Both the position numbers and the translations under genes were made by a program. The notes under the pieces are model-generated. The model saw nothing but the letters and a program-made list of their open reading frames with translations. It searched no databases and was not told the origin of the DNA. 64,000 nt of DNA from Parcubacteria group bacterium GW2011_GWC1_45_14 (GTDB taxonomy: Bacteria > Patescibacteriota > Minisyncoccia > Moranbacterales > GWC2-37-73), in the NCBI GenBank assembly GCA_001001345.1, contig LCKI01000003.1, positions 4,614 through 68,613 of the forward strand, in the 5' to 3' direction. Position 1 is the first letter of the stretch, and the number at the start of each line of letters is the position of its first letter. This document shows positions 7,332 to 31,282 of the stretch, piece by piece.

Positions 7332-9463
7332 TTATCCCTTTCCACCTGATCGTCCATGGCGCTGGCATATTGTGGGCCGCTTTTCTCTCCGACCAGGATC
7401 TCCCTGGCTTTCGCCCCGTCTCCGGGACCGATCACTCCTCTTTCTTCCAGGATGTCGATCAGTCTGGCCGCCCTCGCATATCCTATCCTGAATTTCCTTT
7501 GCCTCGAATTTCATGGAACCGAAATCCAGCTTGTCCTCGCTTGGCAGATCCAATTCCTGCTGCTCTCCGGGCGCGCCCGCCACGATGTTCTCGCCGATCT
7601 CTTCCTCCCCTCTCTCGATTTTCTGGTTCTTCACGAAAGAAACCACTTTCTTCACTTCTTCCTCTGAGACATATACTCCCTGGATACGCTTCATGCCTGT
7701 CGCTGAAACCGAAAGGAAAAGCATGTCTCCGTTGCCCAAAAGCTTCTCTGCTCCGGCGCTGTCCAGCATGGTCCGCGAGTCCATCAAGGATGGGACTTTG
7801 AAAGCGCCCTGGCCATCTGCGCCAAACGGATTATCGCACCTTCTACTTCTTTCCCGTGCGTGGCCATAAGGTCGGCCAGCTCGTCAATCACGATGACGAT
7901 ATATGGAATCTTCTCAATTTCCTCTTCAATCGTCTCGTTCGTGTCGGGATCGACGATCGTCACGGTCTCGCCAGCTTCCGCTTTCTTGTTATATGAAACG
8001 ATGTCCCTCGAACCGCTGAGCTGAAGTTTCTTATATCTTCTTTCCATCTCCCCGATCGCCCATTTGAGGGCGCTGAGAACCTTGCCGTTGTCCACGATCA
8101 CGTCCGAAAGCAGATGAGGTATCCCGTTATAAAGCGAGAGTTCCACTCTCTTGGGATCCACCAAAATAAGCTTGAGGTCTTCCGGCGAATTCTGGTATAT
8201 CATCGAAAGAAGGATGGAGTTCACGCAGACGCTTTTTCCGCTGTTTGTCGATCCCGCGATCATAAGATGGGGCATCTTCTTGAGGTCGGCATAGATGAAA
8301 CTTCCGCTCACGTCTTTTCCAAGCGCCAACAAAAGATTCGAGTTCCTGCTTTCGAATTCCGGGGTTTCCAAGAGCTCCCTCATCCTGACCATCGCGATTG
8401 ACTTGTTCGGCACTTCGATTCCGATCAAGGATTTTCCCGGAATCGGAGCCTCTATCCTGACCGAATGGGCGGCAAGCGCCAAAGCCAGATCCTGAGAATA
8501 CGAGGTTATCCTGCTCAGTTTCACTCCCACCGCAGGACGGAAACTGTATTGCGTCACCGTCGGACCGGTCTTGATCTCGCCCGGCTCCACGTCTATTCCG
8601 AAATGCCTGAACGTATCCTGGATTATTTTAGAATTCTTGCCCACATCCCCGCCCAAGGCGGTCTCGGTCGAAGTTTCCAAAAGATCCAACGGCGGAAGCT
8701 CCCAATCCTCCGGACTGACCTTCTTTTTCTTCTTGAATATCTTTTCCATGATAGGCATCCTGACTTCGGCCTCCACGTCCTCATTTGGATCCTCGACGTA
8801 CTGGGACTCCTCCGGAACATTCTCGGGTTCAACGTGGTGCTCAAGGATAGGGTTGGCGTCCTCTTCAACTTCATCCTCTTCTTCTTTGGAGATTTCCATC
8901 GCCTCCATTTTCCTACTGATGAACTTCCTAACGAAAGTCACCAAGGAGAAGTTGAAAGCAACGATGATTCCGGAAAGCAGCAGCGCCGACAAAATTACGG
9001 TTCCTCCGATCCTTCCCGTGAGCTTGATAAGCAGATAGGCAATGGCGTAACCGATATATCCTCCTCCCTGTCCGTCCTGGGCCAGTTCAAGCAGTTCATT
9101 ATTATCGAAATAAATATGGAAGAAAGCCAGGACGCTGAAAAAAGCTATGGAAAGACCGATGATTTTGGAAATATAGAAAAGCGCTTCCTTGCGGAAAAGC
9201 AAAATGATGCCGGCTGCGATTAAAACGAATGGGGAAAGCCATTTTCCCCAACCGAACAAGGATCCGGCCGCCATGTCGAGATATTCTCCCAGCAGTCCGG
9301 CTTGCTCGAAAAAGCCGAGCACGAAAAGGATAGCCAAGGCGAAAAGAAAAATCGCCGTCGCCCCTCTTTTCGCGTCGCTATGCACGACCGCTTTTTTTTC
9401 CGCTATCTCTTTTTCAATATCCTCTTTTTTTCTTCTTCCCATTTGTTTTGATTTTTCCGCCAA
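7332..9463 (-). pseudogene. ftsK: DNA translocase FtsK/SpoIIIE, disrupted. The ORFs 7784..9463 and 7332..7787 are in different frames, and the gamma domain is in a third frame.
   Basis: Walker A 'GSTNSGKS' and '...IIRLAQMARA' run straight into a stop. The next frame resumes at 'AFKVPSLMDSRTMLDSAGAEKLLGNGDML', so about 29 aa, the expected 'GIHL..[12 protein letters not shown]...' segment, is missing. The gamma-domain '[23 protein letters not shown]' is in yet another frame behind a stop. Confidence 0.7.
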
Positions 9464-9624
9464 AAATCGGCGGCAAATATAGAGCTTAATACCCTTATTC
9501 TATCACACAAGCGCCCTCTCCGCCATATTCCACGGAGCCCGCCTGGACCCAGATGAAGAGCAATTCCTGCGCTATATTTTCTATTTCCATATTTTTGTTT
9601 TTTAGGGCCCGTTTGGGCCATTGA

Positions 9625-10287
9625 TCAGATACTGACGAACGCCACCGGTAGCACTTTCTTGAAAGTCCCCGCGATCATGATCGAATCCGTTTCCGAAATG
9701 TAGATCGGATGGTGCGTCTTGTTCGTGGATTCAGGGAAAAGCCCGATAACCCCGTCCCCTAACTTCTTAAAACGCTTGATGGTCGCCATGCCGTTGATGA
9801 CCGCGACCACCGTTTTGCCGTCGAGATCGTCGAATCCTTCCGCTTTCTCGAAAATCACGTAATCACCGTCGTTTATTCCCGCTTTGTTCATGGAATCCCC
9901 CAGGGCTTTGACTGCGAAAAGCTTTTTCGGATCGGCCTTGAAAAAAAGATTCTTGGAAATCTGCAGGAAGTCGTCCGCCGCCCCTCCATCCGCATAGGCC
10001 AGAGCCTCCCCGCAGGAAGCCAGACCATAAAGCGGAAGGGAAATCACGCTGTTGAGATTGGAATAATTTTTGTTCTCGACGAGATAAATCCTTTTCTGCT
10101 CATCCCTCTTAATGAGGTCCTTTTTCTCCAGGGCCTCGACTACCTGCATGACCGACTTGAGGCTCTCCTCCACCCCCATGGAAGAAAGCTGTTTGTGCAG
10201 GCGGTAACCGGTCGGGTTCTCCTTCCGGCTCTCGATCGCCTCCCTGATCGACTCGAGAATGTTTTTCTGTTTTGAAGTGAGTTTCAT
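9625..10287 (-). CDS. lexA: LexA repressor
   Basis: 220 aa. N-terminal wHTH, C-terminal S24 peptidase with 'GDSM' Ser and 'TIKRFKK' Lys. Confidence 0.85.
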   Translation of the reverse strand: MKLTSKQKNILESIREAIESRKENPTGYRLHKQLSSMGVEESLKSVMQVVEALEKKDLIKRDEQKRIYLVENKNYSNLNSVISLPLYGLASCGEALAYADGGAADDFLQISKNLFFKADPKKLFAVKALGDSMNKAGINDGDYVIFEKAEGFDDLDGKTVVAVINGMATIKRFKKLGDGVIGLFPESTNKTHHPIYISETDSIMIAGTFKKVLPVAFVSI

Positions 10288-19903: not shown

Positions 19904-20284
19904 TCAAGAATGTGAGAATGTCTTCAGGAATTTTTGGATGGCTTGGCCATAGGGGGAAAGCTCGTGGACGACCAGGCGACCCATATTCCTTTTTCTCACG
20001 AGCCCGGCTTGTTCCAGGCGCAAGATATGGGCGGAGATGGTCTTGAGGTTGCACTTCAATATCGCGGAAACGGAATCCACGCTGATTCCCTTCTTCTCCG
20101 CGATCAGGAAAAGGATTTCGATCCTTCTGTGGTTCGCCACACCCTTAAGGTGCCGTTCCATCTGCTTGGAGGATTTTTCCTGGCGGACTTTTTCCTTGGG
20201 ATATTTTTTTCTTTTTATCGCAAGCATAAGTTTATACTCACATTTTACCCCCAAAACCCTCTCCGGACAACATTCTTTAGCCAT
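19904..20284 (-). CDS. ArsR/SmtB-family transcriptional regulator
   Basis: 'HRRIEILFLIAEKKGISVDSVSAILKCNLKTISAHILRLEQAGLV' is a wHTH signature. The true start is probably an internal Met. Confidence 0.65.
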   Translation of the reverse strand: MAKECCPERVLGVKCEYKLMLAIKRKKYPKEKVRQEKSSKQMERHLKGVANHRRIEILFLIAEKKGISVDSVSAILKCNLKTISAHILRLEQAGLVRKRNMGRLVVHELSPYGQAIQKFLKTFSHS

Positions 20285-20324: not shown

Positions 20325-20489
20325 CTATTTCCAATCTTTAATTATGATTGTTTTGCCCTTGGTTTCGATGACAAGTTTCTGACGCTCGCGGATTTTTAGC
20401 GCGTCCACGATTTCAGCGGGGATGTTGATTGAGAGGCTGCGCTTCCCCTGCCTCGTCACCTTGCGCACGAATTTTTCTCCTTTTTTCAT
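20325..20489 (-). CDS. Small AbrB/MazE/SpoVT-family, antitoxin-like DNA-binding protein; absent from the ORF track because it is under 60 aa
   Basis: Translated by hand: MKKGEKFVRKVTRQGKRSLSINIPAEIVDALKIRERQKLVIETKGKTIIIKDWK, a looped-hinge helix pattern. Confidence 0.5.
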   Translation of the reverse strand: MKKGEKFVRKVTRQGKRSLSINIPAEIVDALKIRERQKLVIETKGKTIIIKDWK

Positions 20490-20545
20490 ACTCTCTTGTC
20501 ATTCCAGCCTTTAAGCCGGAATCTATATTAATTTTTTATTATAGT

Positions 20546-20573
20546 CATAATTCCACGGCCGTGGAATTATGAC
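20546..20573. repeat. Perfect 28-bp palindrome TCATAATTCCACGGCCGTGGAATTATGA
   Basis: Same family as 16252 and 17032. It lies in the region upstream of the AbrB-like and ArsR genes. Confidence 0.8.
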
Positions 20574-20610
20574 TATGTTGAAAATACAGGTGTTACGTAG
20601 CATGTTACGT

Positions 20611-20640
20611 AGCGCAAAAAGGTACCTGACCTTTTTCTTT
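20611..20640 (-). terminator. Terminator closing the four-gene RM operon
   Basis: aaaggtcaggtaccttt hairpin plus a T-run on the minus strand, directly after the 20641 stop. Confidence 0.5.
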
Positions 20641-21612
20641 TTAGTCATTGATATTCTTTATCAGCAGATCAATCCATGCATCCGTATAAATATAATCCTT
20701 ATGCGGTTCATCATATTGGCAATATTCTACTTTACAACTTTTTGAATTTGGCCTAACATTGTATTTTTTCCACATCTTGGTGTGCCAACTCATTGTCTTT
20801 TTTTGCTTTGTTCTTTCTTTAATAATTTCCAACACACTTGTTGGCTTATGCTTTCCTTGGTTTGCAACTTGAATATTTTTTTCTTTTATCCCTACAATAA
20901 ATTTCTCATATTTTTTCATTTCCTCACTATTGCTTTGATCAAACTTAACATACTCAACAGCAACATCAGATGAATTACGATGATTACCTAGCTTAGGAAT
21001 AAAAAAAGCTTTGAAAGAAAATTTTTGAGAATCTGAAATGTCAGCAGAAAGAGAATTTCTAAAAGTTTTAATAAAATCAATAATTTTTTCATCTTGTTTT
21101 GATTTTGGCAAGGTTTTTCTTTGTTCTGTAAATTGCAATGGTATGAAGAGATTTTCTACAATGGAATGCTTATCTCCAAACTCTTGCACTAGAAGCTCCT
21201 CAAAATTCAATAGCAATGACTGACATTCACCAGAAATCATAGGGTCTATTATTGGCATAAACCTATGTTCAATTTTATTTCTTATCTCATAAAAAAAGGA
21301 AATATTTTTTAAAACTGGACTATTTTCATCCTTATAGAATTCTGTTGCGGAGTCTAATAATCCCCAAGCCTTATTTTCTCCATTAATTTTTTTAAATCTT
21401 TTTGGATTTTTTTCGTCTAGATAAAAATATTTAACCCTTTGTTTTTCAAAAATAGCATGGAACAATGATGTCCAAGCTATGCACATTAAAACCACAAATC
21501 CACCGGCACGAAATGAAGTCTTCGGCTTATTATAAATATCCACACCCAACAAAGCTGACTCCTTTGCTTTTTCTAATAAATTTGAAACTTTTCCGGGTAA
21601 TCCTCTAGACAT
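20641..21612 (-). CDS. DUF3644-like protein, last gene of the RM operon
   Basis: N-terminus 'ALLGVDIYNKPKTSFRAGGFVVLMCIAWTSLFHAIFEK' resembles DUF3644, assigned from memory. Confidence 0.4.
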   Translation of the reverse strand: MSRGLPGKVSNLLEKAKESALLGVDIYNKPKTSFRAGGFVVLMCIAWTSLFHAIFEKQRVKYFYLDEKNPKRFKKINGENKAWGLLDSATEFYKDENSPVLKNISFFYEIRNKIEHRFMPIIDPMISGECQSLLLNFEELLVQEFGDKHSIVENLFIPLQFTEQRKTLPKSKQDEKIIDFIKTFRNSLSADISDSQKFSFKAFFIPKLGNHRNSSDVAVEYVKFDQSNSEEMKKYEKFIVGIKEKNIQVANQGKHKPTSVLEIIKERTKQKKTMSWHTKMWKKYNVRPNSKSCKVEYCQYDEPHKDYIYTDAWIDLLIKNIND

Positions 21613-21627
21613 ATATCAATATCCTAT

Positions 21628-22392
21628 TTATATTCTTTTCATTTGACTAATAATAGCGTTTGCAAGGTCACGTTTATCAATCAAAAAGTTATCCCATTTA
21701 TTTGCTTCATTTCTCTTTCTGCCCGCAACAAATCCAAACATTGCCTTTCCATTGTTGGAAATTTTATTTGCAAGTCGCACAAAGTCAGGACCTGGAACAA
21801 ACCAAAGATAATCCCAGAGATCACCTTCCTCCGTGTCAAAATAACAAAAAATTGTGGCCGTTGAGTAGTGATCATTAACACCAGAAGCCTTTGCTGTTGC
21901 AGTGAAAATCTCATCGGGATTATTACCAAAACGACTTTTGATCTGGATATACATCGTTTTCAAACTTCCTTTCTCCTTAACAATCAAATCAATTCCCTCA
22001 TCATCAGAAATTGGTTTATAACACGACAAGGTTGTATCGCCATATAAAATAACAAGCTCTGCAATTCGAGCCTCTGCGATATCTCCTTTTTGTTTCGTGG
22101 AAACATCTTTTGAAATGTTGTGAGTTTTATCTTCTTTTTGCGACTTTGATTTTACAGTTTCCCTGAATTCAGGATTCAATCCAAATGTCGAAGGTGCGGT
22201 CTTAATAAAACGAGATTTTTCTTTCTTTGAATTTGTATCAACAACAAGCTGAGCATTCATAGTGGCTTTTGGTGTTTTTCCTGCTGTTTTTAACCAACCC
22301 CTATCAAGAGCAACTTGTGTAATGTCGTTACTATGCAATGGCTTTCCAATTTCTTTTAATATTTGAAAAGCGATTTCTTTAAAAGAATTCAT
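21628..22392 (-). CDS. HARE-HTH domain fused to a PD-(D/E)xK restriction-endonuclease-like domain
   Basis: N-terminal 'EIAFQILKEIGKPLHSNDITQVALDRGWLKTAGKTPKATMNAQL' is a HARE-HTH. C-terminal 'DDEGIDLIVKEKGSLKTMYIQIKSR' is a D..(E)xK-type nuclease motif. Confidence 0.55.
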   Translation of the reverse strand: MNSFKEIAFQILKEIGKPLHSNDITQVALDRGWLKTAGKTPKATMNAQLVVDTNSKKEKSRFIKTAPSTFGLNPEFRETVKSKSQKEDKTHNISKDVSTKQKGDIAEARIAELVILYGDTTLSCYKPISDDEGIDLIVKEKGSLKTMYIQIKSRFGNNPDEIFTATAKASGVNDHYSTATIFCYFDTEEGDLWDYLWFVPGPDFVRLANKISNNGKAMFGFVAGRKRNEANKWDNFLIDKRDLANAIISQMKRI

Positions 22393-22404
22393 GCAATTTT
22401 ATTA

Positions 22405-25140
22405 TTAAAAAATATTTTTTCTAATGTTATACAAAGTTTTCAGCGAACCAATTATATTATCCCTATATTCTGAAATACCGAATGCATCAAAAACCACATC
22501 GTCAAATTCTTTCCTATCACTACTTCTTAACTCATCTAAAATTGGCAGAATTTCTCGATTTTTTAAGACAGCAAATTTTTTCTTTATATCGTCTTTTTGT
22601 TTGTCAGATAACAAATCAGAATTTAAAATTTGCAGACTATTTTTCATCCGAGTTGAACTCAAGTCAAGAGCCCCTAATCCTCTTCCAAATCCCAACGCTT
22701 CAATAAAGAAAATTCCTAAAACACTATTTAACAGTGCCTGCGATAAATCGATATCGATATCGATATTTTTAGCAGTAAATCTCGTCAAGCGCTGATTAAC
22801 GAAAGATCTTTTTTCAAGTTTGGCAACGAAAATTCTCTTATCAAAATTCATACTCGTGACTAAATCTGCCATTGTTGAATTATTCATTTCATACCAGAAA
22901 TATCCAGCCCTCTTTAAAGCATCCGGTAATAGCTTATCCCCACTAGTGTTAAATTCATGTTCGAATTTTCTGATCCAATTTAACGCTCCCGTGTGTCCAA
23001 GCTTTTGTAAATTTTCCAACGATTCAGAACAGCAAAATGATTCTGATTCAGCTTGCGTCACAAGCATATTTATATCTCTTGATGATTTTAAAACAGGCTG
23101 TAAATATTCCGCCTCAATGTTATGCCCAGACTCTGGATAAAACATCGCGTCCCATCCTCTTCTTTCTCCCCTGTTAATATCAAACAAATTACTAGCCAAA
23201 ATAAGTTTATTTTCTATATCTTTAAGCCATGAAACATCGCTAAATAATGCACTCCAATTTAACGTAAAGTCAGACAATTCTTTGGTTTTATATTTTCGAA
23301 TAATTACATGTTCACTTGAAAGGCCAGCCAACACATTTTCCAAAACTTCACCGACCTTTTGATTATCAGTTTCCTTCTGCAAATCAAAATCAATTGTTAT
23401 GAAATTAGTAACTTCATCCTCATTGATTTCATTTAATAAATTTCTTCTATTTAAAATTAGAATGGTAGTTACAACATCAGCATTATTAAACCACCTTCCC
23501 TTACCTGAAATTAATATGGACTCGATGTGATAAAACTTATTCAGAGCAACCTTGAAAGCTGAACCCCATTCTGTACCGAGCCAAGAATTAGAAGTGATAA
23601 TTCCCAGCCTGCCGCCTGTCTTTAATATTTTCCATAAATAAAAAGGTATATATGCATATAAATCACTTTTTGCTTTTAGACTTAAATTTTCACCTAAAAG
23701 ATTTTCAAAAATTTCCCTTGTATTTTCTTTTATATTTGGATTCAAAATCTCTAAATCTTCTTGCTGAATGAATGGCAAATTAGAAGCAATGTAATTAACG
23801 CCCTCATACTTTTTAACGACGGGCTTACCTGTGTAGGGGTCTTTGAATTCAATGTCTTGTCCAATGAAAACATTAGTGCAGTCTTCCTTGAAAATTTGAA
23901 TAATCTCTCCAATATTTACTGGCTCTGTTAATGCGATTGTCGCCATTTGAAGAGGAAAAGCAACCTTGTCACTAGAAAAAATAGTTTTTAATGAATCCTT
24001 AGAGCTTATCCCTGATTCTTTTTTAATATCGTACGCACATCTTGCGATGGTTCCAGTTCCACAGCATGGATCATGAAAGGTTAACTCCTTATTTAACATT
24101 ACTAGACCGGTTAACAACCGAGCCAAAAACATTGGTGTTGCATATTGACCGGCAATTTTTCTTTTTGAAGAATAGATAATATCTTGCAAAAGCTCCTGAA
24201 GGAGTTCTTGACCCACGGATGACAATTCAACATTATTTAATAAGACATTCAATTGGATAATCTCCGACCACGATTCATCTGTTAAATAGTTTTCACCGAG
24301 CTGTGGCTGAAAAATATTCCAAAAATTACATTCGGCAGATATTTCTTGAAAAATTATTTCAGCTTCTTCAACGGAAGTTTCATCCTTAATCAATTCTATT
24401 TTTTTGGCTGGATCAAAGAATGCAATAAGAATATGTGCAAATAGAATCTTGTTAATCCAATTTATCAATATTATTTTAGATAGGATTTCCCATTGATTTT
24501 GTTGCGGATAGTCAAGCTTCGCAACTCGCCACCAAATGTTCGCTTCAGCTGAAAATCGCGCATCTTTCGTGGCCGCTTTTTTTAAATTCTCCGCAACGCC
24601 TGTATCATTTCTTAAAATAAAGTCTACTATCTCACTATCCTTAAAGGACTCTATGAATGTTTTTTTCTCGATAAAACCACTTTCAAAAAAAGCATTAAGA
24701 TCCTTTAATATTTCTTGAAGTAACTTTTTCCATTCATCCTTAAATTCATCAACCTTATCTCTTGTTGTAATTGATTTCTTTAAACTATCCCAAAGTTTAG
24801 CTGGTTCAAATTCGTTGTCCTTTTTTACATACAAAACAGCAACTCCCACATTCCAAAGCAAGAAACTATTCAAGCCCAATATATTTGCCTTTAAAATTGC
24901 GTTCTTAATAAACTCTTCATCTGTAACCAACGTGTCAGGCATCTTTAACTCCCAACCCATTAAAATTTCACTATTACGTCCATACAAAAGAACATCAGGA
25001 AATAGTCTCTTTTTTCCAGTATTTATTGTTGTTTCTCCACCAGCCCTGTCAATTGTCTTATTTTTTGCTGAAGAATATGCATTAATCTCCGAAATGAGAT
25101 CAATTGCCCAACTTCTTTCATTGTAAGAAGTTTTTGCCAT
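22405..25140 (-). CDS. Type IIG (MmeI-like) restriction-modification enzyme: PD-ExK endonuclease, gamma-class N6-adenine MTase and TRD
   Basis: 911 aa (MmeI is 919 aa). N-terminal 'FPDVLLYGRNSEILMGWELK' is a D-ExK motif. MTase motif I is 'HDPCCGTGTI' and motif IV is 'SNLPF'. A long C-terminal target-recognition region follows. Confidence 0.75.
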   Translation of the reverse strand: MAKTSYNERSWAIDLISEINAYSSAKNKTIDRAGGETTINTGKKRLFPDVLLYGRNSEILMGWELKMPDTLVTDEEFIKNAILKANILGLNSFLLWNVGVAVLYVKKDNEFEPAKLWDSLKKSITTRDKVDEFKDEWKKLLQEILKDLNAFFESGFIEKKTFIESFKDSEIVDFILRNDTGVAENLKKAATKDARFSAEANIWWRVAKLDYPQQNQWEILSKIILINWINKILFAHILIAFFDPAKKIELIKDETSVEEAEIIFQEISAECNFWNIFQPQLGENYLTDESWSEIIQLNVLLNNVELSSVGQELLQELLQDIIYSSKRKIAGQYATPMFLARLLTGLVMLNKELTFHDPCCGTGTIARCAYDIKKESGISSKDSLKTIFSSDKVAFPLQMATIALTEPVNIGEIIQIFKEDCTNVFIGQDIEFKDPYTGKPVVKKYEGVNYIASNLPFIQQEDLEILNPNIKENTREIFENLLGENLSLKAKSDLYAYIPFYLWKILKTGGRLGIITSNSWLGTEWGSAFKVALNKFYHIESILISGKGRWFNNADVVTTILILNRRNLLNEINEDEVTNFITIDFDLQKETDNQKVGEVLENVLAGLSSEHVIIRKYKTKELSDFTLNWSALFSDVSWLKDIENKLILASNLFDINRGERRGWDAMFYPESGHNIEAEYLQPVLKSSRDINMLVTQAESESFCCSESLENLQKLGHTGALNWIRKFEHEFNTSGDKLLPDALKRAGYFWYEMNNSTMADLVTSMNFDKRIFVAKLEKRSFVNQRLTRFTAKNIDIDIDLSQALLNSVLGIFFIEALGFGRGLGALDLSSTRMKNSLQILNSDLLSDKQKDDIKKKFAVLKNREILPILDELRSSDRKEFDDVVFDAFGISEYRDNIIGSLKTLYNIRKNIF

Positions 25141-25146
25141 ACTGAT

Positions 25147-26754
25147 TTACTTTAAACTTAATTTCTCTTTTGCTAATTCAACCCTGTCATTGCATATTTT
25201 TACATAGTCAATCTTTTTATCTTTAAATAAGTGCACGTCGGTATTTTTTTCAATTCCAACAAAATCCCTGCCTTCAACAACAGCGGAAACCAAAAAACTT
25301 CCGCTTCCGCATGTATTGTCCAGAATAATTTCGCCAGGATTGCTAAATGTTCTTATTAGATACTGACCAAGTTCTACTGGTTTTTGAGTAGGATGATATA
25401 CTTTTCCTTCGCTTTCTGCGGTTTTGAAATAAACAACATCAATTGGGTATCTCTCTCCATCGCTCTTGACCTCAACAGGTTTAAAATCACCATAACTTCC
25501 AGTAAGTTGATTTTTCCTAACACCCTTATTATATGCCTCTCCTTTTCTCATTTGTGGATTATAAGTTGGCTGTGTTTTATAAAAAACACAGATATCCTCA
25601 TGCTTTCTTAATGGCTGTTTTTTTGCATTCAAAAAATTTGTTGGTTTTGATTTTTCCCAAATTATTTTATATTTAAATAATTTCTCATTACTTAAAATTA
25701 GTTTTGCTGTAAATAATCCTTGAGCTGTTAATACTATTGCGCCGTTGTCTTTTATTATCCTCTCGTATTGCTCCCATAATTTATCCAAAGGAATAACACT
25801 ATCCCATTTATTTTGCGTAGTTCCATAAGGAAGATCACACAAAATCATATCGATAGATTTGTCTGGGATTTTTTTCATCACATCCAAACAATCTCCCGAA
25901 TGAACTTTATTTACAAAATCTTTTATTTCTTTCCTCAAAACTGGTTTTTTTATATTACTCATCGGAAAGTTATTTGCCTCAAAAGCCTGCTCCTCGAGAC
26001 TTGTCTCATAGGCCGTCTTTTCAGTTTCAAGTAATTCAAACAGAGCTGCCTGCGCTCCCTCAGCAACATAATCAAGGCTTTTATTTTTACCCTTTAGATC
26101 TTCAGAAAAACTATAACTTCCCTCACTAGAAGTAATTATAAAATCAATCACATTTATACCGAGAAGTGATCCTGCCTCTGCAATTTTTTTTATGACTTCA
26201 ATATCTTTCTCACTTGGCAAAGGATCCCCGGAAGGATGATTATGAACCAAAACTATACTTGCTGCCCTGAGTTCAAGTGCTGGTGCAAATATTTCTCTTG
26301 GATGAATAAGACTTTTGTCAAGCAAGCCTATGGTTATTGTTTCTTTTTTTATCAACACATTTCTAGCATTCAAATAGAGACACACGAGATATTCTTTCTT
26401 TTTATCTCTCAAACCATAAGTGAGGGAAAGGACACTATTTGAATTTTTAATAACAATTTCATTCCCCCTTCCTTCTTCATAATATCTTTTAACTAGCGCT
26501 ATCGCAGATGAAATTTGCAAGGCTTTTGCTTTTCCAATTCCCTTAATTTGGAGCAAATCGTCAACGGACGAGCTTAAAAATTTTACACCAAATTTTCTTA
26601 TAATTTGTTCCGACAATTCTTTCACATTCTTTCCCATGATTCCACTACCAAGAAGTATGGCAAGTAGTTCACTTTTCGTAAGTGCATCTGAGCCCTTTTT
26701 TAGAAATTTTTCCCTAGGACGATCAACTCTTGATATATCTTTTATTTTTGCCAT
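25147..26754 (-). CDS. RadC-like JAB/JAMM domain fused to a beta-class (N4/N6) DNA methyltransferase
   Basis: RadC 'VLVHNHPSGDPLPSEKDIEV' at residues about 170-190. MTase motif IV 'ILCDLPYGT' precedes motif I 'ILDNTCGSGSFLVSA', which is the beta-class order. Confidence 0.75.
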   Translation of the reverse strand: MAKIKDISRVDRPREKFLKKGSDALTKSELLAILLGSGIMGKNVKELSEQIIRKFGVKFLSSSVDDLLQIKGIGKAKALQISSAIALVKRYYEEGRGNEIVIKNSNSVLSLTYGLRDKKKEYLVCLYLNARNVLIKKETITIGLLDKSLIHPREIFAPALELRAASIVLVHNHPSGDPLPSEKDIEVIKKIAEAGSLLGINVIDFIITSSEGSYSFSEDLKGKNKSLDYVAEGAQAALFELLETEKTAYETSLEEQAFEANNFPMSNIKKPVLRKEIKDFVNKVHSGDCLDVMKKIPDKSIDMILCDLPYGTTQNKWDSVIPLDKLWEQYERIIKDNGAIVLTAQGLFTAKLILSNEKLFKYKIIWEKSKPTNFLNAKKQPLRKHEDICVFYKTQPTYNPQMRKGEAYNKGVRKNQLTGSYGDFKPVEVKSDGERYPIDVVYFKTAESEGKVYHPTQKPVELGQYLIRTFSNPGEIILDNTCGSGSFLVSAVVEGRDFVGIEKNTDVHLFKDKKIDYVKICNDRVELAKEKLSLK

Positions 26755-26839
26755 TTTGTTTCAAAAATAAGCGCCTTGTTACGTATACTGGGGGATGTGA
26801 GGCAGGTGGCGGTTTACCGCTTATATGACCATTCTACTC

Positions 26840-27040
26840 CCCTTTCCCCCCATGGTCCAGCTTTTTAGGGGGTGCGAAATTCCCAATCAAAGCAGGGGTT
26901 CACATTATCAATTATAAATTATCAGTTATAAAATCCCCTTATTTAAGCCGAAATACTGTTATCAGTTACAGGTTATCGGTTATCAAAAATGCCCTGATTT
27001 AAGCAAAAATCAACGGCTCAGGTGGGGTGGGCCGTTGAAA
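26840..27040. repeat. Interspersed intergenic repeat, copy A: C-rich/agcttttt box, GTTATC modules and a caacggctcagg..ccgttga hairpin
   Basis: Related copies at 28412..28630, 35705..35825, 37575..37720, 40871..40900 (partial) and 39262..39288 (hairpin only). The hairpin alone also occurs at 17070..17098. Confidence 0.75.
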
Positions 27041-27084
27041 AAAAGGGCTTAGGAAGGCTTCAAAACCTCCTGGGCGTCGTTTTT

Positions 27085-28410
27085 TCAGGCTTCGCACCTT
27101 TCCAAAAATTCCTTCTGGGCGGAGCGTTTTTTCAAGATGCCCATCTTGGCGACTTCGGCGGAGCTTTTTTGGGAAAGTTTTTGCAAAGCCTTGTCGAACT
27201 CGTGCACCTGCGGATTCACTTCCAAGGCGATATAGTTGATGCCCAAAAGCTTGATTCCCCCGAGGGTCCTGACGCGGGAAAGGGCGACATAGCCCATGCC
27301 GAACTCGAACGATTTGCTAAGGTCCATCTCCACCGCGTCCAGCGTCATGCCTTGGCTTTTGTGGACCGTGATCGCCCAAGCGAGGCGGAGCGGAACCTGG
27401 CTTATGGAAACCAAGGTTTTCTCGTTTTCCTCTATCGACCATTTCTCGGGAGTCGCGACGATCGTTTTTCCTGAAACCGTTTCGACGATCGGCATCCCGC
27501 TTCCGTTGAATCCCGCGACTTTGCCCAGTGTGCCGTTGACATAGCCCTGCTCGAAATTGTTCTTCACGAACATCACCACCGCGCCTTTTTTGAGAAAAAG
27601 GATTTCCGGAGCCAGACAACCTTTCTTGACGGAGCTGACCAAAAACTCGTTGCCGTTCGAGGTCATTTCGAAAACCCGCGCTTCCTCTTTGATCTTTTGC
27701 AATTCCGTTTTATTGATGGCGTCCACGTTGACGTTGTGGGTATAGAGCCTAGTCGGCGTGATTTTGCTGGCTATGGATTTGTTTTCCCGCGAAAGGATCG
27801 TAGCCATGGTTTTCGCGTCGCACGACCGGCTCCGGATGTCGGAAAGTATTTTGAGCATTTCCTTGTCTTCCTGGCGGTGCTGTTCTTCCAGATAGCAGAT
27901 TTTCGGATCCATTTCCTTCCAGGAGTCGGATTCGATTACGAACTGCGCCTGCTGGCCGTATTTCGCGACCGGAGGAAGCTGGAAAAAGTCCCCGCAAAGG
28001 ACCACTTGCAATCCGCCGAACGGCTTGAAGGGGTTTTTGAATTTCTTGCAGATGGCGTTGACGATGTCCAACTGGTAGGCGTGAAGCATAGAGATTTCGT
28101 CTATGATCAGCACGCTGGCGGCCGCGAAGCGGTTTTTGTGGTAATGCCTTTTTTTGAGTTTGGCGTATTCGGCCTCGTCGAAAACTTCGCTGATGCCCAT
28201 GCCTGACCAGCTGTGGATCGTCTGCCCGTTCATGTGGGTCGCGGCGATCCCGGTGGAAGCGGTGACCGCGACTCCGATGTTATTCTTTTTGAGATATTCG
28301 ATATATTGCTTGAGCACGTGGGTCTTTCCGCTCCCGGCCGGACCGGTCAAAAAAACGCTGTGCCCAAGTTTGAGGATATCCAACGCGGTTTTTTGTTTCA
28401 TACTAGCCAT
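27085..28410 (-). CDS. Pif1/RecD-family (AAA_30) DNA helicase
   Basis: Walker A 'GPAGSGKT', 'LIIDEISM', 'GDFFQLPPV', 'HKSQGMTLD' and 'YVALSRV'. Confidence 0.8.
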   Translation of the reverse strand: MASMKQKTALDILKLGHSVFLTGPAGSGKTHVLKQYIEYLKKNNIGVAVTASTGIAATHMNGQTIHSWSGMGISEVFDEAEYAKLKKRHYHKNRFAAASVLIIDEISMLHAYQLDIVNAICKKFKNPFKPFGGLQVVLCGDFFQLPPVAKYGQQAQFVIESDSWKEMDPKICYLEEQHRQEDKEMLKILSDIRSRSCDAKTMATILSRENKSIASKITPTRLYTHNVNVDAINKTELQKIKEEARVFEMTSNGNEFLVSSVKKGCLAPEILFLKKGAVVMFVKNNFEQGYVNGTLGKVAGFNGSGMPIVETVSGKTIVATPEKWSIEENEKTLVSISQVPLRLAWAITVHKSQGMTLDAVEMDLSKSFEFGMGYVALSRVRTLGGIKLLGINYIALEVNPQVHEFDKALQKLSQKSSAEVAKMGILKKRSAQKEFLERCEA

Positions 28411-28411
28411 G

Positions 28412-28630
28412 CTACCCCCTTTTAAACAGCTAGTCTAGCTTTTTAGGCTTTAGCTTTTTAGGGGGGTACGAAATCCCCAATCTAGGAAGGGATGCTGTTA
28501 TCTGTTATGAGTTATCGGTTATCAAAATGCCCTGATTTAAGACGGAATGCCGTTATCGGTTACAGGTTATCTGTTATCGAAATGCCTTAATTTAAGCCGA
28601 AAACAACGGCTTAGGTGGCCGAAGCCTTTT
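28412..28630. repeat. Interspersed intergenic repeat, copy B, with a tandemly duplicated GTTATC module
   Basis: Shares ccccttttaaacagctagtctagctttttag..gggggtacgaaatcccc, gttatcggttatcaaaatgccctgatttaag twice, and a variant hairpin with copy A. Confidence 0.75.
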
Positions 28631-28701
28631 AATCCTCCATTTTAAGCCAAAAAGAAAACCGGAATTAATCCCGGTTTTTCTGCTTGAAATCAATAAAAGG
28701 C

Positions 28702-28893
28702 TTATTTGCAAGAATTTGTCTGCAAGCTACCGAATTTGCGATCATATTCCTTTACGAGCTTGAGCTGATCCTTGTTGGCTCGCTTAGTAGCCTCCACGAC
28801 AAGCTTCTTTTGCTCCCTCGAAGATAAATCAAAAAAACTAAGCTCCTTGCCTGCCTTATTGCGTGTAATTTTTTGAATTATTTTTTTCAACAT
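28702..28893 (-). CDS. Small hypothetical protein overlapping the 3' end of the zeta-like gene by 7 nt
   Basis: 63-aa ORF. Its position suggests a possible cognate partner of the zeta-like kinase. Confidence 0.3.
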   Translation of the reverse strand: MLKKIIQKITRNKAGKELSFFDLSSREQKKLVVEATKRANKDQLKLVKEYDRKFGSLQTNSCK

Positions 28894-29603
28894 AATATTT
28901 TGCTTAGTGATTTCTTATTATATGGCATATCCAAGTAATTGTCAATATTGTCTATGTTAAATTTTATTTTTTCAGTCTCATTTGAATAATTTTTTATTAC
29001 CAGATTAATTTCAACATCTTTTCCAAATTCCTTTTTAATAGCGTTTACATTTTCCTTTGCCTTGAAAAATGCATCCACAAAAGCGTCTTTTGGAATATAT
29101 CTGCCCTCGAGCTCCTCTCGCTTTCTCGTAAACTCCCACGCCCTGAGCGGATCCTGATATAAATAAAATACGCTTATGACCCTGCCTTTCCTTAAGGATC
29201 TTTTGATATTTTCACGTGCGATCTCGTATTTTGCAAATGTTCCATCCATTAAGGCGTTTTGTCTATATTTTAAGACATGGTCGTATATCTTTTCGACTCC
29301 AAGCGAAGAAGCGCCTTGGATAATATCTGAATTTTTTCCATTATATTGCGGGATAATTTTTTTGATTTCATCCGCATCTATTCTTACAATTTCAGTAGCA
29401 TTTTTATATTTTGAAAATAGGATTATAAGTTCTTTTGAAAATTCGGTTTTACCCGCACCAGGAGAACCCGCCATGAAAATAGTAAACGGTTTCTCCACTG
29501 ATGGAAAATTATCAAGACTGCAAAATTTATCCAATAAAGTACGTTTTTCTTTTTGGATAAAAATTCTAGCTTCCTGTGATATTTTCAGCTCATCTCCATT
29601 CAT
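28887..29603 (-). CDS. Zeta-toxin-family P-loop kinase
   Basis: 'FTIFMAGSPGAGKTEFSKEL' is a Walker A. The 238-aa size fits zeta/PezT-like proteins. Confidence 0.65.
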   Translation of the reverse strand: MNGDELKISQEARIFIQKEKRTLLDKFCSLDNFPSVEKPFTIFMAGSPGAGKTEFSKELIILFSKYKNATEIVRIDADEIKKIIPQYNGKNSDIIQGASSLGVEKIYDHVLKYRQNALMDGTFAKYEIARENIKRSLRKGRVISVFYLYQDPLRAWEFTRKREELEGRYIPKDAFVDAFFKAKENVNAIKKEFGKDVEINLVIKNYSNETEKIKFNIDNIDNYLDMPYNKKSLSKILC

Positions 29604-29872
29604 TTATCAATTTTATCAATTTTATTATAGAAAAGCAAAAACATCCTCACAAAAAAGTCTGTTTTTAAGAAAATTACCTTCCTGTTTCTCAGTCACTCAC
29701 CTGACAAGAGTAAGAAATGATGCTAATCCGCGAATTCACCCTATTAAATCCCCGACGTGTCAGGGTGCTTGCCCTGTTGAATTTCAATGATTCAACAGGG
29801 TAAACAATTCAACAGGGTAAATGCCAATCCGCGAATTGCGAATATTATCAAAAGATTGAATATGGCTCAATT

Positions 29873-30337
29873 CTACTCCCCCTTCCCTTTAATCTCAATC
29901 CTATCCAATCCATGCTCATAAAGTTCGTCTCCGTACTTATCGATAAACTCATAACGTTTATAAAATCGCTCGTCCTTACCCATCTTCTTTATTTTATCCT
30001 CACCGTATTTCCGCAAAAAATCCCTCTCGCCCAAGCGATCGGCCAACTCTTCCCAGAAAACATCCTCGTCATATTCTTCTTTGAAATGATCGACAAGTTC
30101 TTCGAACTCAGCCGTCGGGAAATATTTCATATCTCCGACAGGTTCATCATCGACGTATTTTTCCAATCCCGCTTCCTGCGCATATGAAAAAATATAGCTT
30201 TCCAAAAAATTAAACTCCTTGAATTTGTCATCCGTCCGGATTGCATTCACCATCCAATTGCCCAAATATACCAATTTGAGCAAATTTCCATATTGCTTCT
30301 TGGTTAGCTGCACATTGATTTTATTGTTTTCAGTCAT
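29873..30337 (-). CDS. Hypothetical acidic protein
   Basis: 154-aa ORF with no recognised motif. Confidence 0.35.
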   Translation of the reverse strand: MTENNKINVQLTKKQYGNLLKLVYLGNWMVNAIRTDDKFKEFNFLESYIFSYAQEAGLEKYVDDEPVGDMKYFPTAEFEELVDHFKEEYDEDVFWEELADRLGERDFLRKYGEDKIKKMGKDERFYKRYEFIDKYGDELYEHGLDRIEIKGKGE

Positions 30338-30391
30338 ATTTTTTTGAAATCCATATCCCAGCCATATATGATTGTATGGAATTATATAAGA

Positions 30392-31282
30392 TTATTTTTC
30401 ATACTTGAATCCGGCTCCTATTTTCCAAACCCCTTTTTCCCTAAACGCCGGGATGTTTTGGCGGCGGGCGGCGTTGAAGATAGCCGGCGCCGATTTCTCG
30501 TGACCCTTGGCGTATTCCGAAAGGGTAATTATTTTTTCGCCTTTGAGATAGGCAATCCTTTTGTGCAGAGATTCCATAAGCGCTAACGCCAGGATTTTTT
30601 CCATCGTCTTGGTGTTCTTTTTGTCACGGTAATCTCCGAATGCCTTGTAGTATTCGGCTTTTTCCTTATCCCTAATTATGATCGGCACGAGCCCGAGTCT
30701 CATCAATTGGTAGCAGATGATCACGCGCCCGATGCGCCCGTTGCCGTCGCAAAACGGGTGGACGGTCTCGAAGTCAAGATGGAATTTCGCGATTTTTTCC
30801 AAAAAGTACGCATCCAGTTCTTTTGAATATTCCTGCAGAGTCGAGTCTATCATAAGCTCGACATGCTCGGGCGCAGGCGCTATATGCGTGCCGACCCTGA
30901 CGTATTCATATTGCTTGCGGAATCTTCCGGCGATGCCGTCATTTATGCCCCCGATCAACATCTGGTGCATCAGTAAAATAAGCTCTTTGTCGATTTCTTT
31001 TTCTTGCGACTTCGTTCGGATATATTCCATGACACGTGCAAGATTCTTCGCTTCAAATATTTCGCGGACATTCAAATCGCGCGAGACCTCCATCTCCAGC
31101 AGGATTTTCTCCGTTTCCTTGAGCGTAAGGGTTGAATTTTCAATGGCATTCGAGTTATAAACGCTTTCCGGCACCTCCGCCTCATCAATCATAACCAAAA
31201 GCGCCTCCTTGCCCTTTCTGAGGGAGTCGAATTCATTTTTAAGCTCTTGTATGCGCTTTTTAATCGGATTTGTTATGGCCAT
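30392..31282 (-). CDS. Fic-family protein, with an AMPylator-type motif
   Basis: Canonical 'HPFCDGNGRIGR'. Confidence 0.85.
   Translation of the reverse strand: MAITNPIKKRIQELKNEFDSLRKGKEALLVMIDEAEVPESVYNSNAIENSTLTLKETEKILLEMEVSRDLNVREIFEAKNLARVMEYIRTKSQEKEIDKELILLMHQMLIGGINDGIAGRFRKQYEYVRVGTHIAPAPEHVELMIDSTLQEYSKELDAYFLEKIAKFHLDFETVHPFCDGNGRIGRVIICYQLMRLGLVPIIIRDKEKAEYYKAFGDYRDKKNTKTMEKILALALMESLHKRIAYLKGEKIITLSEYAKGHEKSAPAIFNAARRQNIPAFREKGVWKIGAGFKYEK

Follow-up and report, generated by a model that had tools for sequence, protein, structure and literature searches.

Classical Type IIG restriction-modification (RM) enzymes such as Eco57I and BpuSI need companion methylases (PMC2582602; PMC3185434), and MmeI is defined by the absence of a second methylase (PMC2582602). 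The Aravind group has described fusions of a HARE-HTH domain to a restriction endonuclease (REase) domain that assist BREX and Dnd loci in the role of auxiliary effectors (PMC12839542, PMC10853773). DUF3644 proteins constitute a family of HEPN RNases and do not act on DNA (PMC3710099; bioRxiv 10.1101/2024.01.29.577857); one member, HEC-08, provides a defense that is abolished by mutation of the histidine in its Rx4-6H motif, and another member, Ishtar, blocks plasmids. RadC, finally, has been without an accepted function for decades. Here we analyzed a stretch of 64,000 nucleotides (nt) from Parcubacteria group bacterium GW2011_GWC1_45_14 (contig LCKI01000003.1, positions 4,614 to 68,613), hereafter referred to as the window, in which four consecutive minus-strand genes encode a RadC-methyltransferase fusion (gene 1), a Type IIG enzyme (gene 2), a HARE-HTH nuclease (gene 3), and a DUF3644 protein (gene 4). 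Our results revealed that this locus is a stacked mosaic defense array of known module kinds, with the RadC-fused companion methylase as the new element. We interpret it, with a probability of roughly 0.7, as a horizontally acquired, AT-rich array of three autonomous defense modules that recombined at gene boundaries and are probably co-transcribed.

An earlier description of this stretch, made from its letters and referred to here as the original prediction, had presented the four genes as a tightly packed defense operon. The open reading frames (ORFs), domains, and spacing bore out both the tight packing on the minus strand and the defense-island nature of the locus, and profiles, motifs, and fold bore out the proposed domains, namely, RadC joined to a beta-class methyltransferase, a gamma-class Type IIG enzyme, a HARE-HTH protein with a PD-(D/E)xK nuclease, and DUF3644. 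The distances of 7, 13, and 16 nt given at that time are coordinate differences, however, and the true untranslated spacers measure 6, 12, and 15 nt in the 5′-to-3′ order of the array. The GC content of the four genes is 0.31 to 0.35 (about 33% for the segment), compared with 0.40 to 0.52 in the neighboring genes and about 0.46 in the whole window; the four-gene segment is therefore compositionally foreign. A terminator scan found six terminator-like matches within the array against 4.1 ± 2.3 expected, i.e., no enrichment, and the array is probably transcribed as one unit. A megablast search of the 6.1-kb segment against plasmids returned no match.

The four-gene order was checked in relatives and did not hold together, as the array splits into two mobile blocks (Table 1). 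The homology of block A to loci L044, L046, and L047 extends from position 26754 or 26761 to positions 22416 to 22502 and stops ahead of the HARE gene, with none beyond. The homology of block B to locus L075 begins exactly at the ATG codon of the HARE gene (22392) and ends 7 nt beyond the DUF3644 stop codon (20634). Elsewhere, blastn aligned the window with L075 over the RadC part (69.8% identity, 26754 to 26015) and found nothing between the RadC part and HARE. The closest HARE homologue, 91% identical, is encoded in L075 and L076, where the genes are arranged in the order ClpB-HtrA, RadC-D12 methylase, D12 methylase, AlwI nuclease, HARE, and DUF3644. The same RadC-headed AlwI system is followed by HARE, without DUF3644, in L039 and L041. 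Because the blastn breakpoints fall at gene borders, we concluded that the array consists of block A joined to block B inside the 12-nt spacer, and since the two blocks differ both in their nearest relatives and in their divergence (71% versus 86% nucleotide identity), the joining appears to be recent.

Table 1. Positions of the genes, domains, blocks, and flanking features of the array (window coordinates)
Feature	Position	Strand	Remarks
RadC-methyltransferase fusion gene (gene 1), 535 aa	25147-26754	minus	ATG start
UPF0758_N helix-hairpin-helix + RadC JAB of gene 1, aa 1-218	26101-26754	minus	domain match aa 4-218
Beta-class N6/N4 DNA methylase of gene 1, aa ~277-535	25150-25926	minus	N6_N4_Mtase match aa 301-505
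Type IIG RM enzyme gene (gene 2), 911 aa	22405-25140	minus	ATG start
HARE-HTH nuclease gene (gene 3), 254 aa	21628-22392	minus	ATG start
DUF3644 gene (gene 4), 323 aa	20641-21612	minus	ATG start
Block A (RadC-methylase + Type IIG)	22416-26761	minus	blastn 71-72% to L044, L046, L047-L050
Block B (HARE + DUF3644)	20634-22392	minus	blastn 85.7% to L075, L076
Candidate promoter region, upstream intergenic, 0.43 GC	26755-27084	minus	consensus matches only
Weak 8-bp AU-rich hairpin right after the DUF3644 stop codon	20616-20636	minus	RNA fold
Perfect 34-nt palindrome TAGTCATAATTCCACGGCCGTGGAATTATGACTA	20542-20575		16-bp stem + 4-nt loop in RNA

Gene 2 matched the PADLOC model REase_MTase_IIG (PDLC03606) with 1052 bits over residues 3 to 910 of its 911 amino acids (aa), and its domains follow the order of an N-terminal PD..ExK nuclease, a gamma-class N6-adenine methylase, and a C-terminal recognition region. 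The nuclease motif reads P48-D49...E64-L-K66, of which D49, E64, and K66 are invariant in five homologues down to 45% identity. In the methylase, DPCCGTG at residue 357 lies ahead of NLPF at residue 454, which is the gamma-class order (Pfam N6_Mtase, E value of 9e-10); a Pfam Eco57I match remained below the threshold (21.8 versus 25.3 bits). The original prediction had called the enzyme MmeI-like. None of the Pfam models MmeI_N, MmeI_hel, MmeI_Mtase, MmeI_TRD, and MmeI_C matched gene 2 at an E value of ≤0.01, and these models were present in the searched set, as shown by a weak MmeI_Mtase match of another protein. Searches of solved structures with the single sequence and with a five-member profile yielded no MmeI, BpuSI, or other Type IIG enzyme, the best solved relative being M.BseCI. 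The MmeI label also fails on the companion methylase described below, which is the opposite of the MmeI hallmark, and it is because of this partner that we refer to gene 2 as Eco57I-style.

The RadC part of gene 1 cleared the NCBIfam cutoffs of both NF000642, the RadC equivalog (208 versus 180 bits), and TIGR00608 (199 versus 134 bits), and the metal ligands of its JAB domain are intact (E154, H171-x-H173...S175...D184, with HNHPSGDPLPSEKD at residues 171 to 184). In the methylase part, motif IV (DLPY, residue 307) precedes motif I (DNTCGSG, residue 479), the order of the beta class. Full-length relatives comprised 16 fusions with 70 to 76% identity, and the beta-methylase domain alone is 75 to 82% identical in many proteins with other N termini (proteins P0138 to P0240). 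Members of this family carry no N-terminal extension, UPF0758_N only, LexA_DNA_bind with Peptidase_S24 (about 485 aa), MerR/HTH_17, or Rrf2. Such swappable DNA-binding N termini (LexA, MerR, Rrf2, and the helix-hairpin-helix [HhH] of RadC with or without JAB) suggest that they serve the methylase as a targeting or regulatory extension, and the LexA fusions hint at a coupling of RM control to the SOS response. Of the 120 proteins closest to the RadC part (55 to 75% identical), 27 carry a D12 methylase and 14 carry a C5 methylase, besides the N6_N4 fusions. Judging from these predicted proteins, the fusions of one RadC clade involve three methylase classes that are unrelated to one another, i.e., beta N6/N4, alpha D12, and C5. 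We found no paper describing RadC-methylase fusions.

The contexts of the methylase revealed its partner. Three full-length RadC-methylase homologues whose surroundings were read (72 to 74% identical) reside at three unrelated chromosomal positions, and the next gene after each, at +3 or −20 nt, is a Type IIG gene whose product (908 to 916 aa) is 67 to 68% identical to that of the window; no HARE gene and no DUF3644 gene is present in these three contexts. The same Type IIG partner accompanies P0233, a 310-aa methylase that lacks RadC. On plasmids, six of the seven best matches (from Weissella, Lactobacillus, Pediococcus [two], Levilactobacillus, and Rhizorhabdus) encode a methylase, 65 to 70% identical, that adjoins and lies directly upstream of a co-oriented, collinear Type IIG homologue with 28 to 40% identity over 63 to 100% of the query, and the one such homologue tested, from the Lactobacillus plasmid, matches PDLC03606. 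In total, the two genes stand side by side in 11 contexts that were sampled separately (the window, L044, L046, L047, L053, and the six plasmids), outside the window without the HARE and DUF3644 genes and with the Type IIG homologue, 28 to 68% identical, in every case downstream of the methylase. No HARE gene occurred in any of the RadC-methylase, P0233, or P0186 contexts. Because the adjacency persists on chromosomes, on plasmids, and in the absence of RadC, and because it fits the literature on Type IIG enzymes, we regard methylase and Type IIG enzyme as a conserved unit, in which the methylase of gene 1 is, as far as gene linkage can tell, the companion of the enzyme encoded downstream. It should be noted that in the marine contig L053 (10691 to 14590), the pair is followed by a 317-aa protein, a RAMA-domain protein, and a GmrSD Type IV enzyme. 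The RAMA domain is a proposed reader of adenine methylation, and reader and Type IV modules are thus again stacked behind this RM system.

The HARE-HTH domain of gene 3 was identified by Pfam PF05066 (residues 3 to 72, E value of 6.7e-20), and its nuclease part (residues ~95 to 254, window positions 21628 to 22110) matched PDDEXK_5 with 26.4 bits against a cutoff of 26.1 bits. In an alignment of 55 sequences reaching down to 20% identity, residues E107, D130, D135, and Q150-x-K152 are at least 90% conserved. A first AlphaFold2 (AF2) model, based on 28 sequences that were all at least 74% identical, was unusable (predicted local distance difference test [pLDDT] score of 55.7), whereas the model obtained from the diverse 55-sequence alignment reached a pLDDT of 93.3. 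A Foldseek search with the C-terminal domain retrieved SPARDA DREN as the best match (E value of 1.9e-5), together with archaeal Hjc, DpnI, I-Ssp6803I, EcoRV, and NhoI. DREN is the effector nuclease of short-Argonaute systems and is activated by filament assembly. HARE-HTH (PF05066) was matched by 30 of the 55 family members and Pfam DUF4365 by 9. Given the second AF2 model, the Foldseek matches, and the conserved residues, the nuclease assignment is sound.

The distribution of this protein is broad. We obtained 790 homologues, the best 120 of which are 72 to 91% identical over the full length, in Patescibacteria, Gammaproteobacteria, Omnitrophota, Bacteroidota, Firestonebacteria, and Pacearchaeota and Methanosarcinales archaea. 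In an exhaustive HMMER scan, the tight HARE clade formed one cluster at 50% identity, with about 20 more full-length clusters at 30 to 52% (P0474, 29%), and the nuclease domain also occurred alone or behind other N termini. The clade matches no PADLOC model. A search with the protein against plasmids gave no match, and a search against 2.9 million viral contigs gave one. Contigs encoding an identical HARE protein came from the same organism and context only and were therefore uninformative on conservation.

We examined the surroundings of the HARE gene in 35 loci. In most of them, HARE closes, or nearly closes, a cluster of co-directional genes. About 20 of the 35 copies start within 25 nt of the gene upstream or overlap with it, and the other gaps measure ~55 to 310 nt. 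The genes that precede HARE are of at least 15 different types, among them members of Type I, IIS, IIG, and III RM systems as well as Abi genes. They encode AbiU2, GmrSD-HNH, ThsB-TIR next to BREX PglZ/BrxL, AbiEii-WYL, HsdS, ResIII helicases (Type I/III), a PLD-SNF2 helicase, a YgjP peptidase, Fic, D12 and N6_N4 methylases, and AlwI-family nucleases. By tblastn, a Type IIG gene, a DUF3644 gene, or a close relative of the methylase was found at none of 33 HARE loci from other lineages, where the best matches to the methylase part of the window were 25 to 43% identical. In the flanks examined for L014 and L017, no methylase gene was called within ~3 kb upstream of HARE or downstream of it. The GC content of the HARE gene remains at 0.34 to 0.45 irrespective of that of its flanks (0.33 to 0.62), and no recombination or target motif proved to be generally conserved around HARE genes, the search yielding only subgroup-specific promoter-like and hairpin flanks. 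The varied upstream genes, the lack of a linked close relative of the window's methylase, the host-independent GC content, and the lack of a flanking motif led us to regard HARE as a portable, methylase-independent module; on the evidence of these contexts, the HARE nuclease is apparently not the cognate nuclease of the RadC-methylase. We had also considered the beta-methylase and the HARE nuclease, both of which are unusually conserved, as a widely traveling cognate pair and rejected this candidate, as the two never co-occur outside the mosaic loci.

Some HARE copies possess flanks of their own. In L021, L029, L034, and L035, a conserved stretch of ~60 nt (TTTTGGCGAGTTTAAA..AAACTTTGCA..) lies upstream of HARE, in copies ~55 to 170 nt from the upstream gene, and a GC-rich hairpin located just past the HARE stop codon is shared by L019, L020, and L034. 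These flanks suggest that some HARE copies may carry an autonomous promoter and terminator. Downstream of HARE in L041, from Moranbacteria, an OLD-family ATPase-TOPRIM gene (AAA_15/AAA_21 plus OLD-like TOPRIM; 8232 to 9929) appears to be split into ORFs of 210 and 345 aa and may represent a pseudogene or a frameshift.

Gene 4 contains a DUF3644 domain (PF12358, residues 11 to 187, E value of 1.5e-50) and matched the PADLOC model PDC-S19 (PDLC04950) with 407 bits over residues 1 to 322. Its HEPN motif, of the Rx4H form, reads R111-NKIE-H116, and inspection by eye for a C-terminal region resembling a zinc ribbon revealed a Cys/His patch with only a single C293-x4-C298 and His residues near it. 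None of 17 metagenome DUF3644 loci (33 to 81% identical) had a HARE, Type IIG, or RadC-methylase gene nearby, and in annotated loci, DUF3644 genes are found between HsdR and HsdS, or after the M/S genes, of Type I RM operons. By analogy with HEC-08 and PDC-S19, gene 4 is predicted to encode a single-gene RNase of the abortive-infection type; the original prediction had let DUF3644 act on DNA, which is at odds with the RNase nature of the family.

Collectively, these data allow a mechanism to be proposed. In the first module (block A), an Eco57I-style Type IIG RM system, the 911-aa enzyme would recognize its site, methylate one strand, and cut unmodified DNA, and the beta-class methylase encoded upstream would add a further protective methylation, probably of the second strand, its RadC module (HhH plus JAB) presumably acting as a DNA-binding, targeting, or regulatory extension. 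The second module would be the 254-aa HARE nuclease, which would need no cognate methylase and is most likely, by prediction, a Type IV-like or "backup" nuclease. It would attack DNA that escapes the RM system, e.g., phage DNA with modified bases, in agreement with published predictions. It probably does not cut generic N6-methyladenine (6mA) DNA, since the co-resident N6-adenine methylases would make such cutting suicidal. The third module, the DUF3644 HEPN RNase, is predicted to provide a last line of defense by abortive infection.

Several observations weigh against this interpretation. The methylase is far more conserved (65 to 81%) than its Type IIG partner (28 to 68%; L044 to L053, L077, and plasmid matches H1 to H18), a gap that is unexpected if both proteins must track one recognition site. 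The LexA-fused methylase P0186 (L051/L052, 7001 to 8458) is arranged tail to tail with a 322-aa gene that is not a Type IIG gene. Co-transcription is only predicted, from the spacing and the lack of a convincing internal terminator. HARE and DUF3644 travel together in one other lineage (L075/L076), and HARE follows RadC-headed RM systems also in L039 and L041; some functional coupling of HARE and DUF3644 with RadC-headed RM systems is therefore conceivable.

A stronger form of such coupling would be an obligate four-part composite, in which either the methylation state or the RM enzyme would govern the HARE and DUF3644 effectors, like PrrC guarding EcoprrI; the original prediction had named, as one of two options, a composite system acting on DNA that is not protected by both methylations. 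PrrC is almost exclusively embedded in Type I RM systems, where the nuclease is held latent by the RM complex, and such latent, RM-embedded HEPN nucleases are an established paradigm. The spacers of 6 to 15 nt, the uniform GC content of 0.31 to 0.35, and the position of block B behind a RadC-headed RM system in a second lineage would all be compatible with a composite. However, for each gene there are many loci that lack the others, HARE and DUF3644 each standing alone in many unrelated defense operons, and blocks A and B differ in their nearest relatives and divergence (71% versus 86%). Furthermore, a guard that serves Type I, IIS, IIG, and III RM, BREX, and Abi partners alike cannot hinge on a single specific contact between proteins. 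We consider an obligate composite unlikely.

We also find it improbable that the HARE nuclease is a selfish, free-standing gene of the homing-endonuclease kind that inserts itself after genes in mobile defense islands. Pfam PDDEXK_5 is the family of the homing endonuclease I-Ssp6803I, which was also retrieved by Foldseek, and one homologue at NCBI is named "group I intron-associated PD-(D/E)XK endonuclease"; the very high conservation across phyla, the low, host-independent GC content, and insertion points exactly at gene borders could be explained in the same way. Nevertheless, neither a conserved flanking target sequence nor an intron context was found, and the upstream neighbors with a Pfam match are all defense or toxin genes, with the exception of the YgjP-like peptidase (L037), 7 of the 20 scanned neighbors having no match. 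Reader domains of the HARE-HTH kind are characteristic of restriction-type proteins, some copies seem to own conserved promoter-like and terminator-like flanks, and the single match in 2.9 million viral contigs, with none in plasmids, likewise speaks against a selfish element.

It had further been suggested that two RM systems are interleaved, such that the RadC-methylase and the HARE nuclease form a Type II pair and a self-sufficient, MmeI-like Type IIG enzyme is inserted between them. A beta-class methylase and a small PD-(D/E)xK nuclease are indeed present in one array, and HARE follows RadC-headed methylases also in L039, L041, and L075. In those three loci, however, RadC is fused to the D12 methylase of a complete AlwI-type IIS system, so that HARE is surplus. 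No close relative of the beta-methylase lies beside HARE in the 33 loci of other lineages, HARE stands in L014 and L017 without a called methylase over the stretches given above, the methylase always adjoins a Type IIG gene where HARE is absent, and no MmeI model matched; the conserved neighbor of the beta-methylase is the Type IIG enzyme and not HARE, which makes interleaving very doubtful. The alternative originally set against a composite, i.e., a known Type II pair beside an unrelated Type IIG enzyme and an unlinked DUF3644 gene, comes closer in that unlinked add-on genes were indeed found, but the pair consists of the methylase and the Type IIG enzyme, and HARE is an add-on as well. Lastly, we find it most improbable that the RadC-methylase serves a mobile element in anti-restriction or establishment instead of being a Type IIG partner: mobile elements carry RadC fused to ArdC, primases, and helicases (PMC3239186, PMC5512222), RadC domains often occur in polyvalent proteins from conjugative elements alongside ArdC and orphan methylases, and the array is closely preceded upstream by genes for a PIF1 helicase, a zeta toxin, and a Fic protein, but the methylase is strictly adjacent to a co-diverging Type IIG gene in chromosomal contexts devoid of mobile-element genes and keeps the same partner without RadC.

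The position of RadC on chromosomes deserves separate mention. The order ClpB, HtrA (trypsin-PDZ), and RadC-methylase is shared by L047 (1 to 9632) and L075 (1 to 6569), which belong to distantly related genomes; between the two loci, ClpB has ~60% aa identity and the RadC part 73%, and the cargo downstream of RadC is wholly different. This synteny suggests that RadC may be a fixed chromosomal anchor in some lineages, and RadC may mark a chromosomal hotspot for the exchange of restriction systems. We considered RadC of the window as a housekeeping gene of the host located beside an insertion and rejected this, as its GC content of 0.346 is island-like and not host-like. In L073 (5930 to 9580), from Omnitrophota, a 324-aa RadC with a weak D12 remnant precedes Bro-N, a PLD-family nuclease, and an N6_N4 methylase, and the locus resembles a RadC-headed restriction cassette that has decayed or been replaced.

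The upstream intergenic region contains two sigma-70-like matches on the minus strand, at 26932 to 26904 and 26859 to 26831, which are consensus matches only. Downstream, a terminator had been placed at 20611 to 20640. An 8-bp AU-rich hairpin is present there, but its U-run belongs to the stem and the terminator scan did not list it, so that the hairpin stands and the terminator call does not. The dominant structure of this side is the 34-nt palindrome located ~65 nt downstream of the array, which occurs once in the window, is a much stronger structure than the hairpin, and accounts for most of the −33.9-kcal/mol fold of the surrounding 126 nt (z = −5.3). It is possibly a terminator or a protein-binding site at the island border; as it has no minus-strand U-tract, it may bind a protein or serve recombination instead of terminating transcription.

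Two small genes lie directly downstream of the array on the minus strand, i.e., a 54-aa MazE/AbrB-like ORF (20325 to 20489; Pfam MazE_antitoxin, 24.3 bits versus a cutoff of 24.7), for which no toxin partner was identified, and a gene for a 126-aa winged-helix (ArsR/MarR-like) protein (19904 to 20284). Upstream, conflict genes occupy positions 27085 to 31282 on the minus strand. These encode a PIF1-like helicase with weak PADLOC PDC-S68 and RecD-like matches, a zeta toxin whose gene is overlapped at its end by a 63-aa ORF, a 154-aa protein, and a Fic protein with a match to PADLOC PDC-S04/SoFic. A DUF2779 protein is also encoded among the surrounding genes. The array is thus surrounded by a mobile or defense neighborhood, and the island is larger than four genes.

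We propose that the locus be annotated as a Type IIG RM system with a companion methylase, plus PDC-S19, plus an uncatalogued HARE-HTH nuclease, and not as a new four-gene system. Its gene-border breakpoints illustrate how defense operons are assembled from portable single-gene modules. A clade of methylase-fused RadC proteins that heads restriction operons provides a genetic context for the role of JAB and HhH, and the HARE clade, which is abundant, exceptionally conserved, spread across bacterial and archaeal phyla, consistently attached to other defense systems, and without a PADLOC model, is a good candidate for a new single-gene, Type IV-like defense. We tentatively entertain two coupled ideas, which taken together are possible but have the odds against them: that RadC is a functional partner of restriction-associated methylation and that the ~253-aa HARE clade is a widespread, uncatalogued, methylase-independent restriction enzyme. 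If this were true, RadC could, for example, guide the methylase to DNA that is incoming or newly replicated, or time the methylase relative to the nuclease, and the HARE nuclease would be a portable "tail gene" on many kinds of defense operons in bacteria and archaea.

With respect to known systems, block A shares with the Type IIG systems of Eco57I and BpuSI a nuclease, a gamma-class N6-adenine methylase, and a recognition region in one chain, as well as an adjacent, conserved, separate methylase. It differs in that the enzyme has no detectable sequence relation to solved Type IIG structures and matches Pfam Eco57I below threshold only, and in that the companion is of the beta class and fused to RadC. 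The nuclease-methylase-recognition order in one chain is also that of the MmeI family (Type IIG/IIL), from which the enzyme of the window is set apart by the lack of an MmeI match in Pfam or among structures and by the constant presence of a companion methylase. The HARE nuclease has the N-terminal HARE-HTH domain, the C-terminal PD-(D/E)xK domain, and the location downstream of modification or defense genes in common with the HARE-HTH-REase fusions (Aravind and Iyer 2012; PMC12839542, PMC10853773), which have been predicted to discriminate modified DNA, and differs from the described BREX and Dnd effectors as a very tightly conserved ~253-aa clade with no PADLOC model. Like DpnI and the winged-helix-fused Type IV/IIM endonucleases (PMC11037411), it combines a small PD-(D/E)xK nuclease with a winged-helix-type reader and is predicted to need no cognate methylase, but its reader is N terminal, i.e., in reversed order, and the HARE-HTH domain has an extra helix. 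It also shares its loci with several families of N6-adenine methylases, which speaks against a generic cutting of 6mA DNA. SPARDA DREN (DUF4365), which resembles the HARE nuclease domain most closely in structure, differs from it by having an APAZ or Argonaute partner. Gene 4 agrees with HEC-08, PDC-S19, and Ishtar in the N-terminal DUF3644 HEPN domain with Rx4-6H, the C-terminal Cys-containing region, and the occurrence of relatives in RM operons; in the window, however, it is appended after a Type IIG and a HARE gene and not embedded in a Type I or Hma system. Finally, gene 1 resembles the ArdC-RadC, primase-RadC, and DinG-RadC fusions (PMC3239186, PMC5512222) in its HhH and JAB domains, intact metal ligands, DNA-acting partner, and conflict context, and it differs from all of them in that the partner of RadC is a DNA methylase.

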